A stretch of DNA of 64,000 nt. It comes from a phage. This document shows positions 3,108 to 58,072 of the stretch, piece by piece; within the stretch, counting starts at the first letter, position 1; every line of letters starts with the position of its first letter. The notes beneath the pieces were generated by a model. It was given only the letters and a program-made list of their open reading frames with translations. It ran no database searches and had not been told where the DNA came from. Position numbers and translations under genes: made by a program. The DNA lies in the sequence record PZ256263.1. The stretch is one strand, 5' to 3'.

Positions 3108-3116
3108 TAATGTATA
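3108..3116 (+). promoter_or_regulatory. TAATGTATA motif (candidate promoter for the phage sigma factor)
   Basis: Exact TAATGTATA; the same motif recurs upstream of several genes. No ORF lies immediately downstream, so function here is uncertain. Confidence 0.3.
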
Positions 3117-3216: not shown

Positions 3217-3245
3217 TTGACACCGAAAACAGCCTGATATATAGT
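3217..3245 (+). promoter_or_regulatory. Strong host sigma70-like promoter (TTGACA, 17 nt, TATAGT)
   Basis: Consensus -35 at 3217-3222, 17-nt spacer, -10 TATAGT at 3240-3245; AT-rich UP-like sequence upstream. Confidence 0.65.
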
Positions 3246-3848: not shown

Positions 3849-3877
3849 GTTGACAGCGAAAACAACATGATTCATAA
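3849..3877 (+). promoter_or_regulatory. Strong host sigma70-like promoter (TTGACA, 17 nt, CATAAT)
   Basis: Consensus -35 at 3849-3854, 17-nt spacer, -10 CATAAT at 3872-3877; flanks resemble the promoter at 3217. Confidence 0.65.
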
Positions 3878-4801
3878 TGAGCACTCACTAAGCAAATCAT
3901 CGCTTCAGTGAAAAGCGTAACAACGGCTAACAGTTGCATAGTGTGAGAAAGCACACTGATAGATTTACCGCTCTTTAATAATTTAAACATTCTCCTATAT
4001 CGGTTGAATATGTTAGATGATAATAACCATCGGATAACATACCAGATAAAACGGCGTAAAACTCCCTAAATTATCAGGGTAAACAGTTTTACATTCCCTT
4101 ACTGGAAACGTCACCACTGATAAACAGATTCATCGAGTACACGCAAAGACTTAAGCTAATCGCCCACGGTTAAGGGTAGCGGCGGTCATCGCTAACATGG
4201 TGCTACGGTGAAAGAAGTTAATCAGGGTAGGCAATCCCGACGAATTAACGCTCAATTGAGAGCGGCGGGGAGTGGTTAAAAAGTGGCAAATTGCTATTTA
4301 ACAATAAGGTTTAGTGTGAACGTTTACGATGTGAACGGCTTGAGATTCATCTTATGATGAAAGTACATAGTCGGTTTATGTAGTAAACTTGCCGAAAGAT
4401 ATAAAACGTCGGAACATTAGACGGTCAATGACTCTTTCGCAATAGTATCCCGTAGTGGGCGATGACTAGCGATTGAGAGTTGATATAAAAGGATAGGCGA
4501 GAGCGAAAGCAAAGTAAACGATATTGCCGACGGTTACAATAACGTAACTAATTAGAGTCGGACGCACTGCCTTATTGTGATGATTGATCATCGCTATCAG
4601 GTCGGCTTCGTTTATAGCGACTAATTAAAGATACCAGATGAAACATCACGGATAAGGGGGCGGCAAGGTTAACTCCTGATAAGACCGCCCCACTTACCTA
4701 TAACTACTGAATAGTTAGCGGTTATAGTTAAGTTAATAGCGACTTAAACAAGCTCATAGAGAGCGGGGCAATAGCGCCCTTATAATTGAAAGGTGAATAT
4801 C

Positions 4802-9268: not shown

Positions 9269-9626
9269 CACCGACTTATAGCCCTTGTGCTTATCAGAGG
9301 GCTATGTGAGGGTGTTCCTCATTAACTTATTAATTCAGGCATATGCCACACCGCTAGGGAGAGCTTGCTCGAACATCCGGTGTTAGACTAAAACCTGTTA
9401 ATTTTCGAAAGACTTTCTGATATGTAGGGGTACATATTAGTTTGGGATTCAGGAGACTTCCTAGGGGTAGGGAGTCTTCACCAGTTGGAATAAGAGATAG
9501 CTCTAGAACCTGAACTCTTAGGCAGAGAAGGTCGGCAATGAGTACGCGGTCAGAATTAGTCTACTGACTAGGGCTATCCCTTATATCAACTGGCAATAAT
9601 GCCTCCACTAACAAAGAGAGATAGGT

Positions 9627-9966: not shown

Positions 9967-9971
9967 AGAGA

Positions 9972-10000
9972 GGCTGCCTTCGGGCGGCCTTTGTTGTTTT
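9972..10000 (+). terminator. Rho-independent terminator
   Basis: GGCTGCC-ttcg-GGCGGCC stem (one G-U pair) followed by TTTGTTGTTTT. Confidence 0.6.
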
Positions 10001-10997: not shown

Positions 10998-11073
10998 GCG
11001 CTCTTAGCTCAATGGATAGAGCAGTAGCCTTCTAAGCTATTGGTTACAGGTTCGAGTCCTGTAGGGCGCACCA
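10998..11073 (+). tRNA. tRNA-Arg (anticodon UCU), 76 nt including CCA
   Basis: Hand-folded cloverleaf: acceptor GCGCTCT/AGGGCGC, D-arm GCTC-AATGGAT-AGAGC, anticodon loop CTTCTAA, T-arm ACAGG-TTCGAGT-CCTGT, discriminator A then CCA. Confidence 0.85.
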
Positions 11074-11093
11074 AAATCAAATAGGAGGTGGTT

Positions 11094-11393
11094 ATGAGTT
11101 GGGGTGGTGTAATATCCTTAATCTGTATCTTCCTTGTCTGTGTGGCCCTTACAGGCTGCGTACAGAGCCGTCCTGATGGGTGGTGTGCAGTAGCAGTGGA
11201 TGGTATTTGTGTATCTCGCTGGCATAAAGGTGAGAAGGTTCCTTCTGGTGAGATTGATATGCGCTGGAACGGGGCAACCTGCTCTAATGCTAACCCTTCT
11301 ATTAATGAAGAGAAGTCTACGCCAGACAATGTTGTGATTGATACAGCGTTGTGGTGTGGTGGCTCTACGATTACAACCGGTAAGGAGTGGTAA
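11094..11393 (+). CDS. Cys-rich lipoprotein (99 aa)
   Basis: AGGAGG RBS; signal peptide with lipobox LTGC (ICIFLVCVALTGC); about 10 Cys in the mature part. Confidence 0.55.
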   Translation: MSWGGVISLICIFLVCVALTGCVQSRPDGWCAVAVDGICVSRWHKGEKVPSGEIDMRWNGATCSNANPSINEEKSTPDNVVIDTALWCGGSTITTGKEW

Positions 11394-11394
11394 T

Positions 11395-11643
11395 ATGACA
11401 GCTCATTATTGGAATACAAAGAAGCTTCTTGAAGAGATGGCTGGGGGTAGTAGAGTACAGCTGATTTCTATGCTTAGGATGGATGCTCGCTCTTTACGTT
11501 TCCAAGTAAAGATTGGTAACTTCAGTGATGGTCTTTATTACACACTGAAGGAAAGAATTAAGAAGACTCACTTTATTATGTACGGAATCAAACCGAGAAC
11601 ATATGTTAACTACATGTATTGGGATACATGCTACGATAATTGA
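11395..11643 (+). CDS. Hypothetical protein (82 aa)
   Basis: ATG at 11395 after AAGGAG. Confidence 0.5.
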   Translation: MTAHYWNTKKLLEEMAGGSRVQLISMLRMDARSLRFQVKIGNFSDGLYYTLKERIKKTHFIMYGIKPRTYVNYMYWDTCYDN

Positions 11644-41223: not shown

Positions 41224-41692
41224 AGAACCTGTAGTTTATAAAGACTCTATCAGAGATCAATATAATGAGATGTTAAAGAAACAAGCTGATTCTAATCTTC
41301 GTTATCAGAGGATAGTAGAACAATCTAACTTTAAAGGTTTACTTGAATGGTAACTTATATCCTTTACTTCTTAGCTTTCTTAGGAATAGTCTTTTTATCT
41401 ATTATTCTTGAATTTGGTTTAAGTAAGTTAGTTAATTATTTAGGTAGTAAGTAATTAATATTCTTTTAAATAGAGAATCAAAGTCCCTAGGAGTCCCCAC
41501 AACCTAAATCAAGGATTCCTTAATTCTCTATTTTTATCTCGCAGGTGGCTCCTGCCCTTCGGTACTTGCAAGGGATTCTATGAATTGCCCAATGTACAAG
41601 CCTGCAAGAGTTATTCTCTAACTCTACCTTATATACATTACCGTTAGTGAGTATCTACTACCAATAAAATGATACTTATCTTACAAAAGTTA

Positions 41693-42528: not shown

Positions 42529-42552
42529 AGCCACCTCCGGGTGGCTTTTTTC
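42529..42552 (+). terminator. Rho-independent terminator
   Basis: AGCCACC-tccg-GGTGGCT stem followed by TTTTTT. Confidence 0.7.
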
Positions 42553-42564
42553 GTTGGAGACAAC

Positions 42565-42915
42565 ATGCAAAACACATTAAGTGATAACTTAGGGTTTATC
42601 GTTTTCTCGGCTCTTGTATTCTTTGGTGGTATGAAGTTTAACGAGTACCAAACAGACAGCAGTAATCTGGACAAAGAGAAGCACCAGCAAGAGTTAGAGA
42701 TTGAAAGAAGTAGAGCAGCTGATGAAGTTGCTCAGAGGGTTCTTACCGGTTTATCTAACTGGAAGAAGAACACGGAAACCGTTTATAAAGAGATGCATTA
42801 TGAGAAAACTAAACCAGTTTTTTATAATGTCTGCGCTAGTGATGAGTATGTCAGCTTGTTCAATGAGCGACAACAGCAGGCAATCAATGCCCTTACCAAC
42901 AAACCTAAAAGCTGA
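42565..42915 (+). CDS. Putative i-spanin (Rz-like), 116 aa
   Basis: N-terminal TM LGFIVFSALVFFGG then charged helical domain; embedded lipoprotein ORF in the +1 frame. Confidence 0.45.
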   Translation: MQNTLSDNLGFIVFSALVFFGGMKFNEYQTDSSNLDKEKHQQELEIERSRAADEVAQRVLTGLSNWKKNTETVYKEMHYEKTKPVFYNVCASDEYVSLFNERQQQAINALTNKPKS

Positions 42916-43059
42916 ATGTAGGGTTGACCTGCCTCTTTTAGAAAGTGCTCAAGGAAAAGCACTAGCCACTACGTTGGAGTGGTATCAGGACCAGTACACA
43001 GAATGTGCTGCCAATCACAATGGATTGCTAGAAGCTCTGAAAGAGCGTGGAATAGAATA

Positions 43060-43060
<1 letters not shown>
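42800..43060 (+). CDS. Putative o-spanin (Rz1-like lipoprotein), 86 aa, overlapping the i-spanin
   Basis: AAAGAG RBS; signal peptide MRKLNQFFIMSALVMSMSAC with Cys, Pro-containing mature region; starts inside and extends past 42565-42915. Confidence 0.4.
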
Positions 43061-56067: not shown

Positions 56068-57102
56068 TTATTGTATACTCCTGAATATTTTCCTAGCATC
56101 TAATATCGGAATGCTTAATCCGAGAGCACCACCCCCTCCTAAATCATATTGACTACTCCAAGAGTAAATCATCCTTCCGAAACCTGTACCGAAAGAAGAG
56201 CCATTCATCATGTGAGATCTTGTGTGTTGAAAATACCAACCACTAGCCTTACCTCTTATTGCTCCAGCACCATAAGATAGAGGTATCATTGGATAGGCCA
56301 AAGATGTGTTACCACCACTCATAGGCATAAATCCCTCAACATTAAAAGGGGTTCTATATGTAGAAAAAACACACTGAGACCCATTTGGAGAAAAGATATT
56401 TAAACCTCCATTGTGGGTTGGTACTCCCGAACCATCACAGAAGACGGCAATCCTAACACCACCAATGTACCCTGTTTGGTTTGTGTTACCATTATCATGA
56501 GATCTGTTCTGGTACACATAAACAACCCTATTAGATGGGTTGTATAGTAGCCCTGCTCCGCCGTTACTCCAATTCGCGTAGACAGTTGCTCGGCTCATGT
56601 CAAAACCACCAATATCTGGTATTTGAAGAGAACCGTTTATATCACCCTCCCAAGCCCAAATACATTGACCAACAACTCCAGAATCAGAGATTGAGAAATA
56701 GTCAGCAGAGTTGGAGAATGTGATTCCATAGTTCCTGTTAGCTCTAGGCCATATTTGATACACATTAAAAGCCATATCAAATACCCAACCATTTACGTTA
56801 TAGTCCATAGTAACTCTGAAGGTTGAGTTATTAATAACAGATATATCCGTTAGCCAATATACATCAGACGTTACATTAGGAGGTATATATCTCTCCCAAA
56901 CAACAGACCCTGTTGGAACTACAACTATCTGACCACTACCATCCCAACCACTTATAGGCAAATCACAGGTATTTCCGCTAAAAGAGAAATTCCCACTGAC
57001 TCTATTTCTGAGTTGAGGGAATGTGCTACCACTATCAATATAAATATCAGCAGGGGCCGCTGGACCCGGACCAACCGGGCGTGTCCATATTCCATATGCC
57101 AT
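56068..57102 (-). CDS. Putative tail protein (344 aa)
   Basis: Gly/Asn/Ser/Trp-rich beta-type composition; 1-nt gap to the upstream tail gene. Confidence 0.45.
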   Translation of the reverse strand: MAYGIWTRPVGPGPAAPADIYIDSGSTFPQLRNRVSGNFSFSGNTCDLPISGWDGSGQIVVVPTGSVVWERYIPPNVTSDVYWLTDISVINNSTFRVTMDYNVNGWVFDMAFNVYQIWPRANRNYGITFSNSADYFSISDSGVVGQCIWAWEGDINGSLQIPDIGGFDMSRATVYANWSNGGAGLLYNPSNRVVYVYQNRSHDNGNTNQTGYIGGVRIAVFCDGSGVPTHNGGLNIFSPNGSQCVFSTYRTPFNVEGFMPMSGGNTSLAYPMIPLSYGAGAIRGKASGWYFQHTRSHMMNGSSFGTGFGRMIYSWSSQYDLGGGGALGLSIPILDARKIFRSIQ

Positions 57103-57103
57103 G

Positions 57104-58072
57104 TTACCAACTCCCTATTCTTATGCGAAGAGTTCCACTCCCATCATAAAAATCTATTCTATTACCATTCATCCACAACTGAGAACCACCTGTACCACCC
57201 ATAACAAAATCACCACCAACAGTAAGTCTCCAGTTAGAACCCCACATAGAACCAGCAGTGATTTTATCCGCTGATAAGTTCTGAATCTGAGCATTGGAGA
57301 TGGATACGTTATCAATCTGTGCCCATTGGATTCTAGCGTTAGCTATCTGAGCTGTTGTGATATTGACGTTCTTTATATCAGCAAACTCCATCCTAGCCCT
57401 ACCACCCTCAAACACAAAAGGTGTGTTACCAGAGCTGCCATCACCAACAATAAACTTGTTAGCTGTTACTTGGAATTGACTGTTTGTTCCATTGTTAGTT
57501 AACTTGACCCCAGCATACCTTCCGTTGACTGTAGAGTTAACACCCCACGTAGCTTCATACTCAGAGAGTTTCATATACTGAGAGAGGCTTCCGTTGATAT
57601 TTTGTAGTTCTGTCTGAACAAGAGCAATCTCTTGACCTTGATCATTAACAATACCTTCTACTGTCTGAATCTTAGTTGTGTTGCCTTCGATGCTAGTCTT
57701 AAAACCAGATACAGTGCTTTCTAGTTTTACAGGAGGTTGAACAGAGTTATCCCAAATGTCCTCAGTGGACAGATTCCCCATCTGGGTTTGGATATCTGCA
57801 ATAGCTGTTTCTATCTCTGTAGTAATTCTATTCTCAAGCTCATCAAATTGAAGATTCATTGCATTAAGAGCTTTAATACGAACATCAATCTCTTCGTGAA
57901 TTTCATCTATAGCTTGGAACATTTGGTTAGTAGCTGTGCTAACTTTTTGTAATTCATCATACACTGCTACGTTATATGTTTCTGTGTCCTGTACATTATT
58001 GAGAAACCCAACGTTGTACGGGAGTGTGGTGTTGTTGCGACCAGTGTTCTTACGAAAACCACCTGCACCCAT
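57104..58072 (-). CDS. Putative tail fiber/tail protein (322 aa)
   Basis: ATG at 58072 with GGAGGA RBS (track start 58138 would overlap); coiled-coil N-half and beta-rich C-half. Confidence 0.5.
   Translation of the reverse strand: MGAGGFRKNTGRNNTTLPYNVGFLNNVQDTETYNVAVYDELQKVSTATNQMFQAIDEIHEEIDVRIKALNAMNLQFDELENRITTEIETAIADIQTQMGNLSTEDIWDNSVQPPVKLESTVSGFKTSIEGNTTKIQTVEGIVNDQGQEIALVQTELQNINGSLSQYMKLSEYEATWGVNSTVNGRYAGVKLTNNGTNSQFQVTANKFIVGDGSSGNTPFVFEGGRARMEFADIKNVNITTAQIANARIQWAQIDNVSISNAQIQNLSADKITAGSMWGSNWRLTVGGDFVMGGTGGSQLWMNGNRIDFYDGSGTLRIRIGSW

Follow-up and report, generated by a model that had tools for sequence, protein, structure and literature searches.

Small siphophages encode their superinfection-exclusion lipoproteins beside the cognate receptor-binding protein (RBP) (Maffei 2021). 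For Rtp45, the superinfection-exclusion lipoprotein of phage Rtp, a cryo-electron microscopy (cryo-EM) structure with Shigella LptDE-LptM has been reported (Dunbar et al., PNAS 2025, PMC12685063). In that complex, Rtp45 occupies a site between LptE and LptM on the periplasmic rim of LptD, its residues 30-35 pair with LptD residues 318-323 in a β-sheet, and a disulfide links Cys30 to Cys38; a long hairpin runs up the LptD lumen, extracellular loop 4 is shifted by up to 20 Å, and RBP binding is blocked (PMC12685063). Here, we analyzed a small lipoprotein gene at positions 11094-11393 (plus strand) of a 64,000-nucleotide (nt) stretch of phage DNA, sequence record PZ256263.1, which is referred to below as the window and belongs to a Kuravirus. 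A preliminary description made from the sequence had put the gene forward as a candidate superinfection-exclusion or receptor-masking factor, and this proposal is strengthened by direct homology to Rtp45, by a homologue of the cognate RBP in the same genome, and by the location of the gene in the early region. Homology to Rtp45, together with the DUF6453-type RBP homologue, allows the likely target to be named as LptDE and not FhuA. Our analyses suggest that the protein is probably an Rtp45-family outer-membrane exclusion factor acting on LptDE, and that the phages it excludes likely include the Kuravirus itself.

The 99-residue product covers PF24052 ('Phage_lipoprotein') over the entire profile (positions 1-80 of 80, 117.1 bits against a cutoff of 27, E = 3.4e-34) and also matches phrog_4281 (E = 1.8e-33). 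When it was compared with all PDB chains by phmmer, the sole real match was Rtp45 (UniProt Q333D9; 9RPS chain D, E = 1.2e-13, residues 6-66), with which it shares the pattern RPDGWCA...G.CV..W..G..VP.GE.D.R..G. Matches of residues 64-98 to armadillo-repeat chains in the PDB, with whole-sequence E values down to 8e-7, were spurious (about 4 bits for each repeat, per-domain E of about 300). The conserved core, residues 23-62 (VQSRPDGWCAVAVDGICVSRWHKGEKVPSGEIDMRWNGAT; 11160-11279, plus strand), aligns with Rtp45 residues 22-61 in phmmer. In the alignments, the protein closes with a C-terminal strand, residues 89-99 (GGSTITTGKEW; 11358-11390, plus strand), whose GKEW terminus is common to Rtp45 (GSKEW), Webervirus proteins, and most family members.

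A word-indexed search gave just 9 close relatives, and exhaustive searching of 1.84 billion representative proteins with HMMER gave 13 clusters at 50% identity, restricted to phages, so the family is small. We built two family alignments, of 19 and 22 sequences. Cys22 is invariant in both (19/19 and 22/22), C31 and C39 are invariant in 19/19 and align with C30 and C38 of Rtp45, and G29, G37, G52, and G60 do not vary. Such conservation bears on the idea that the gene is a decaying or non-functional passenger from horizontal transfer, which its variable middle region and the uncharged start of its signal peptide might suggest. We regard this as very improbable, given that the gene is full length with a strong ribosome-binding site (RBS) in all Kuraviruses examined, that residues 1-60 are near-identical among Kuravirus lineages (P0001, P0002, P0005, and phiEco32), and that Cys and Gly positions are kept even in relatives with as little as 31% identity. 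T1 Cor scored 17.0 bits against the family hidden Markov model (E = 2.7e-4 in a tiny database) versus 87-119 bits for members, and the family is therefore distinct from Cor, whose 17 bits apparently come from the signal peptide and lipobox alone. Judged by these comparisons, the protein joins a family for which a Pfam entry and a solved structure already exist, and its loop insertion, described below, is what sets it apart.

The open reading frame (ORF) runs from ATG at 11094 to TAA at 11391-11393, as read from the sequence and the ORF list, and begins 20 nt after the end of a transfer RNA (tRNA) gene in the same orientation, tRNA-Arg with anticodon TCT (10998-11073, plus strand; ARAGORN; Rfam RF00005, 72.4 bits), which was the sole match in the Rfam scan. 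A Shine-Dalgarno sequence, AGGAGG (11083-11088, plus strand), lies 5 nt ahead of the ATG; both the consensus RBS and the position directly after the tRNA had been noted in the preliminary description and stand as given. GTG at 11088, the start in the ORF list, overlaps the AGGAGG and is unlikely to be the true start. The N-terminus of the product reads MSWGGVISLICIFLVCVALTGC. The signal peptide, residues 1-21 (MSWGGVISLICIFLVCVALTG; 11094-11156, plus strand), combines an uncharged n-region with a long hydrophobic core of 14 residues (mean Kyte-Doolittle 3.27), and its residues 3-20 form a helix in the AlphaFold2 (AF2) prediction. The core is followed by the lipobox L19-T20-G21-C22 (11148-11159, plus strand; Cys22 codon 11157-11159), so the clear LTGC lipobox described earlier is borne out. 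The mature protein is predicted to start with Cys22 in acylated form. Under the +2 rule, which is established for Lol sorting in E. coli, the residue at +2, Val and not Asp, points to the outer membrane as the predicted destination. Across the six frames of the window, 3 ORFs have lipobox-type N-termini compared with a mean of 0.07 in 30 shuffles, and this type of N-terminus is thus not attributable to chance.

One of the other two lipobox-bearing ORFs is a probable o-spanin, which is relevant to the possibility that the 11094 gene itself encodes an o-spanin/Rz1-like lysis protein. The product is indeed a small lipoprotein, and one relative in a T1-like record is annotated 'u-spanin'. However, the window has its own probable overlapped i-spanin/o-spanin pair at 42541-43060, consisting of an Rz-like i-spanin (42541-42915, plus strand; phrog_1152, E = 2.8e-37) and an 86-residue lipoprotein ORF with lipobox MSAC that overlaps it out of frame (42800-43060, plus strand; phrog_2425, 'unknown function'). 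The 11094 gene lies in the early region, with small early ORFs as neighbours and no i-spanin partner, and the structure of its homologue was determined on LptDE. As the window holds a separate Rz-like gene and an overlapping lipoprotein ORF, we exclude a spanin role for practical purposes and give it next to no credence.

The mature protein has 78 residues, close to the roughly 80 estimated earlier. The estimate of about 10 cysteines in it was too high, and so was the label 'Cys-rich': there are 7 Cys in the whole protein, namely C11 and C16 in the signal peptide, the acylated C22, and C31, C39, C63, and C88, the last four being the free ones of the mature part. These four most likely form two disulfides. 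C63 and C88 bound a variable loop (residues 63-88; 11280-11357, plus strand) that is inserted relative to Rtp45. Both cysteines are present in 8/19 members and both absent in 11/19, and neither ever occurs singly, which indicates a second disulfide, probably C63-C88. In the AF2 model, the insertion falls at the tip of a long hairpin (strands 52-65 and 86-98), where the loop is of low confidence, and 75 columns are taken up in the Foldseek alignment with 9rps_D, a target of 53 residues. Kuravirus lineages differ in the length of this loop, with proteins of 93, 99, and 108 residues.

The window was assigned to Kuravirus (Gordonclarkvirinae), that is, to a prolate phiEco32/SU10-like podovirus. 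The 3 kb around the gene are 99% identical to Escherichia phage ev_rybdy3 and 89-96% identical to KBNP1711, NJ01, Paul, YF01, and Bas90. An N4-like (Gamaleyavirus) placement was ruled out, the best matches being KBNP1711, NJ01, phiEco32, SU10, and Bas90. The phiEco32 orthologue of the lipoprotein, phi32_106 (73% identity), is annotated 'putative phage lipoprotein' and also directly follows a tRNA; the tRNA-then-lipoprotein order is found in both phiEco32 and ev_rybdy3 (annotations PQ819470 and NC_010324). The lipoprotein nature of the product is therefore not new, as the phiEco32 orthologue has long been so annotated.

As the exclusion lipoproteins of small siphophages adjoin their cognate RBP genes, the window was searched with the Rtp RBP, Rtp44. 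This tblastn search matched 56068-57102 (minus strand) with 24.5% identity over 286 residues (E = 1.5e-14), a gene for a 344-residue DUF6453 protein that we propose as the cognate RBP and that is homologous to Rtp44 and RBP-Oekolampad and orthologous to SU10_019 (61% identity). The protein belongs to PF20051 (E = 1.2e-24), and phmmer against the PDB returned one match, 9RPT_C (E = 5.7e-9), which is the Oekolampad receptor-binding protein bound to open LptDE. Its AF2 model (predicted local distance difference test, pLDDT, 84.4; predicted template modelling score, pTM, 0.86) retrieved the same chain in Foldseek, with E = 7.5e-13 and a target template modelling score (TMt) of 0.80, and the next match had E = 0.17. 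The N-terminal MAYGIW resembles MAQGIY of Rtp44 and MGAGIL of RBP-Oekolampad. In public records, the gene is labelled 'membrane protein' or 'hypothetical', and its PHROGs class is 'moron/host takeover'.

The gene upstream of it encodes the tail needle, SU10 gp18 (57104-58072, minus strand; 322 residues from ATG 58072; 7Z4B_EA, E = 1e-209, query 23-344). The start given in the ORF list, TTG 58138, lies 22 codons upstream of the ATG used in the SU10 structure. The needle contains PF09327, the lambda-J-like Phage_Tail_Tip domain (E = 1.1e-26), and its C-terminal part aligns with the last ~280 residues of the J-like central fibres of T1 and Rtp (blastp E = 4e-8 and 1e-5). We propose the tip domain of the needle as the putative docking site of the RBP. 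The late region of the window thus repeats the pair 'J tip then DUF6453' of Rtp (rtp43-rtp44-rtp45), and the third gene of the module, the lipoprotein gene, appears to have moved to the early region. A DUF6453 homologue directly behind a J-tipped needle suggests that the excluded phage is most likely the Kuravirus itself, and such self-exclusion would imply LptD as its terminal receptor.

The same association is found elsewhere. We inspected gene neighbourhoods for 10 diverse family members, 2 of which lay on uninformatively short contigs. The PF24052 gene adjoins a PF20051 gene and a PF09327 J-like gene in Rtp and in L010, L011, and L016, three mutually distant metagenome lineages, making four independent siphophage lineages in all. 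Other members (L006 and L009) stand within arrays of small genes of the early type. The first-generation BASEL phages among the matches listed, Bas01, Bas14, and Bas20, all belong to the seven BASEL phages whose dependence on LptD was established by genetics (PMC8594841). In the genome of T1, a phage that depends on FhuA, no DUF6453 ORF was detected at E ≤ 1. Within Gordonclarkvirinae, about 90 records carry each of the two genes, for the lipoprotein and for the DUF6453 protein, at ≥57% identity. In the Klebsiella Webervirus FZ10 (L003, 4995-5222) and in L014 (6001-6243), the lipoprotein gene lies between VRR-NUC and Dam genes and not beside tail genes. A DUF6453-like gene is nevertheless encoded in FZ10, 10 kb from the lipoprotein gene, which hints that LptD may be a receptor for Webervirus phages of Klebsiella too. 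Prophage members of the family were also seen near lambda-type terminase and portal genes, in L012 (GCA_028069755.1, 1252-1551) and L013 (GCA_900182065.1, 6001-6243).

Several observations weigh against an Rtp45-like lipoprotein that excludes the Kuravirus from LptD. The n-region MSWGG has neither Lys nor Arg; an uncharged n-region is unusual for lipoprotein signals, and this one would not satisfy the additional rule of PROSITE PS51257. The AF2 model of the lipoprotein is of moderate confidence (pLDDT 70.9; strands 31-35, 38-44, 47-50, 52-65, and 86-98). Its top Foldseek match and the only meaningful one was 9rps_D, with prob 1.00 and TMt 0.66, but with E = 2.5e-3 and a root-mean-square deviation of 6.4; Rtp45 itself is reportedly mispredicted by AlphaFold (PMC12685063). 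Because the ~25 inserted residues map to the segment with which Rtp45 penetrates LptD, the lipoprotein might bind in another way. Moreover, the lipoprotein and DUF6453 genes are ~45 kb apart, unlike the adjacent siphophage pairs, and their sequences do not co-vary (in Bas90, the lipoprotein is 96% and the DUF6453 protein 62% identical). SU10_019 is missing from the list of SU10 virion proteins detected by mass spectrometry, though gp18 and gp20-24 were detected and it should give about as many usable tryptic peptides as the detected gp21; the cryo-EM study of SU10, supplements included, does not mention it either. The DUF6453 protein is therefore a putative virion component. Finally, the SU10 and BASEL authors assign terminal recognition to the short tail fibres.

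The lipoprotein might instead exclude competitors only, blocking LptD against abundant LptD-dependent siphophages (Rtp-like phages, Dhillonvirus, and Queuovirinae) while the Kuravirus itself would complete adsorption on lipopolysaccharide (LPS) or another receptor through its short fibres and the DUF6453 protein would not be a virion RBP. Besides the missing SU10_019 and the published models, which place the terminal step on short tail fibres, the unlinked arrangement fits this account, and a lipoprotein gene beside replication genes and away from tail genes recurs in Webervirus and L014. On the other hand, the DUF6453 gene stands within the late tail and ejection block, right after a needle whose tip is homologous to siphophage J proteins, and its product retains the N-terminal MAxGI(Y/W) motif common to Rtp44 and RBP-Oekolampad and is kept at 44-99% identity throughout the subfamily. 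We know of no precedent for a non-virion role of a DUF6453-type protein. Exclusion confined to competitors is thus a serious rival, though in our judgement an unlikely one, to exclusion that also covers the Kuravirus.

If the lipoprotein does act as Rtp45 does, the following course of events can be envisaged. Host sigma-70 RNA polymerase would transcribe the gene early, within a long operon, as its position and the phiEco32/SU10 maps suggest. From its sequence, the pre-protein would leave the cytoplasm through Sec, receive its lipid at Cys22, and be cut by signal peptidase II; given Val +2, Lol would then carry it to the outer membrane, where it would be anchored in the inner leaflet. By homology to Rtp45, it would dock on the periplasmic rim of LptDE, where the core stapled by C31-C39 would add a strand to LptD and the long β-hairpin would extend into the lumen, displacing LptD extracellular loop 4 such that LptD-type RBPs could not bind. 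At the tip that is predicted for this hairpin, the C63-C88 loop may extend further into the lumen. Infected cells, and later envelope fragments, would cease to be targets, productive or wasteful, of phages that finish adsorption on LptD, and the progeny would be spared the debris. Exclusion would extend to Rtp-like phages, Dhillonvirus, and other siphophages that depend on LptD.

A plugged LptDE could instead serve host takeover, with LPS or O-antigen export slowed or outer-membrane permeability altered, and exclusion as a side effect. Consistent with this, the Rtp45 hairpin fills the LptD lumen in its closed state, attempts to express the Oekolampad exclusion protein in E. coli failed, as might be expected of a toxic protein (both PMC12685063), and O-antigen is the first receptor of Kuraviruses (PMC11990801). 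However, there is no indication that Rtp45 inhibits LPS transport, and its co-expression with LptDE was well tolerated (PMC12685063). The tight pairing with DUF6453 RBPs in siphophages also favours a role centred on the receptor. We therefore see modulation of LPS export as possible but unsupported, and as an improbable main function.

The predicted expression timing agrees with the proposed exclusion role. The gene stands within an array of small ORFs in the same orientation. A consensus scan found near-consensus sigma-70 promoters in the left spacer (672-699, 3217-3245, and 3850-3878, plus strand), of which the last two have 11/12 consensus matches, lie ~7 kb upstream of the lipoprotein gene in the same orientation, and are likely the early promoters of the operon that holds it. 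Early promoters of SU10/phiEco32 have been reported in the equivalent spacer (PMC4281155), and in these phages CDS 69-125 form the early class, which the sigma-70 polymerase of the host transcribes until gp79 shuts it off (SU10 genome paper PMC4281155; 2025 Nucleic Acids Research paper). From its position and the match to the published SU10/phiEco32 early region, we infer that the lipoprotein gene is early and sigma-70-transcribed. The phiEco32 gp36-type motif TAATGTATA occurs in five exact copies, at 3108, 34676, and 41693 on the plus strand and at 41632 and 51525 on the minus strand, positions that suit middle and late promoters. None was found near the lipoprotein gene, the nearest exact plus-strand copy being that at 3108, and there is thus no hint of middle or late expression. 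No convincing sigma-70 promoter was found between a terminator-like hairpin at 9969-9992 and the lipoprotein gene, which is probably expressed by read-through from the early promoters upstream.

Two further features of this early region were recorded. The next gene (11395-11643, plus strand; 82 residues, phrog_13462, function unassigned) begins 1 nt past the lipoprotein stop, and its AAGGAG sits within the final lipoprotein codons, which suggests translational coupling. Upstream, ~350 nt without an ORF (9270-9625, plus strand) interrupt the early gene array, a gap kept in phiEco32 between genes 112 and 113. Its predicted RNA fold is more stable than 100/100 shuffles (z = -3.0) with no Rfam match, and the segment may have a regulatory function or encode a structured RNA.

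Taken together, the two genes lead to a broader proposition, to which we assign about an even chance: Kuraviruses, and probably all Gordonclarkvirinae, may end adsorption on LptD. They would do so with a module derived from siphophages, in which the needle acts as a free-standing J tip carrying the DUF6453 protein (SU10 gp19, that is SU10_019), so far overlooked in virions, complemented by an unlinked early Rtp45-type lipoprotein with a longer, disulfide-locked hairpin; the like would be predicted for Klebsiella Webervirus, given its similarly unlinked genes. The terminal receptor of Gordonclarkvirinae is so far unidentified (PMC11990801), and current models for the terminal step involve short tail fibres and LPS. 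In the searchable literature, we found no paper linking Kuravirus, Gordonclarkvirinae, phiEco32, or SU10 to LptD. The only co-occurrence of those names with LptD was in unrelated passages of the BASEL paper, and DUF6453 occurred once, in one paper. A co-infection paper on SU10 and SU57 describes cross-resistance without receptor genetics and serves as a lead only.

Gordonclarkvirinae are common, broad-host-range, and restriction-resistant coliphages under consideration for therapy. The presence of both halves, LptD recognition and LptD exclusion, in one genome provides a specific receptor candidate that is immediately testable with existing materials, namely the BASEL Kuraviruses Bas86-93, the published lptD receptor mutants, and the LptDE expression system. 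As LptD is essential and conserved, its use by a second phage morphotype, if true, would bear on resistance evolution and cocktail design: Kuraviruses and LptD-dependent siphophages would exclude each other and select the same resistance mutations. The findings also show that RBP and exclusion modules are mobile across siphoviruses and podoviruses, with the two genes of a module being separable. For annotation, the DUF6453 gene need no longer be labelled 'membrane protein / moron', nor the lipoprotein 'hypothetical protein'.

Among known systems, Rtp45 is alike in its PF24052 membership, the position of the lipobox, the cysteine pair (C31/C39 here, C30/C38 there), the RPDGWC...VP.GE.D.R motifs, and the GKEW end, and in being encoded in the same genome as a DUF6453 RBP. 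It differs in length (76 residues vs 99), since the present protein has the ~25-residue loop with a second Cys pair, and in location, as its gene is directly adjacent to the RBP gene whereas in this podovirus 45 kb separate the early-region lipoprotein gene from that of the DUF6453 protein. The n-region is uncharged here, and binding to LptDE, seen in the solved Rtp45 complex, is here a prediction from homology. SE-Oeko (bas18_0026) of the Dhillonvirus Oekolampad shares the motifs G.C...Y/A.G.C, VPAGDVDMRF, and S.EW in the supplement alignment. It is cognate to a phage whose LptD dependence was shown experimentally, and the exclusion lipoproteins of other LptD-type RBP loci (Maffei 2021) belong with it among the closest systems; unlike the present protein, SE-Oeko is a short form without the C63-C88 loop and adjoins its own RBP gene.

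More distant systems agree in principle. Llp of T5 is likewise an early small outer-membrane lipoprotein on the periplasmic face of the receptor that T5 itself uses, changing its extracellular loops (PMC12685063), but it targets FhuA and acts by allostery through a TonB-dependent transporter. No FhuA-Llp chain was matched by phmmer against the PDB at E ≤ 10, the presence of Llp in that PDB set being unconfirmed. Cor of T1, phi80, and N15 is also a small lipoprotein encoded beside the J/RBP locus that excludes phages sharing the receptor; its target is FhuA, and its mature sequence is unrelated. Pseudomonas phage DEV (Schitoviridae, gp54-56 fibre) belongs to another phage family, with a different host and different RBPs, and the text of PMC12892993 mentions no lipoprotein, with 'superinfection' appearing in the reference list only. 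DEV nonetheless resembles the scheme proposed here in using O-antigen first and LptD second (PMC12892993), and the use of LptD by a Pseudomonas schitovirus makes LptD a plausible terminal receptor for podoviruses.

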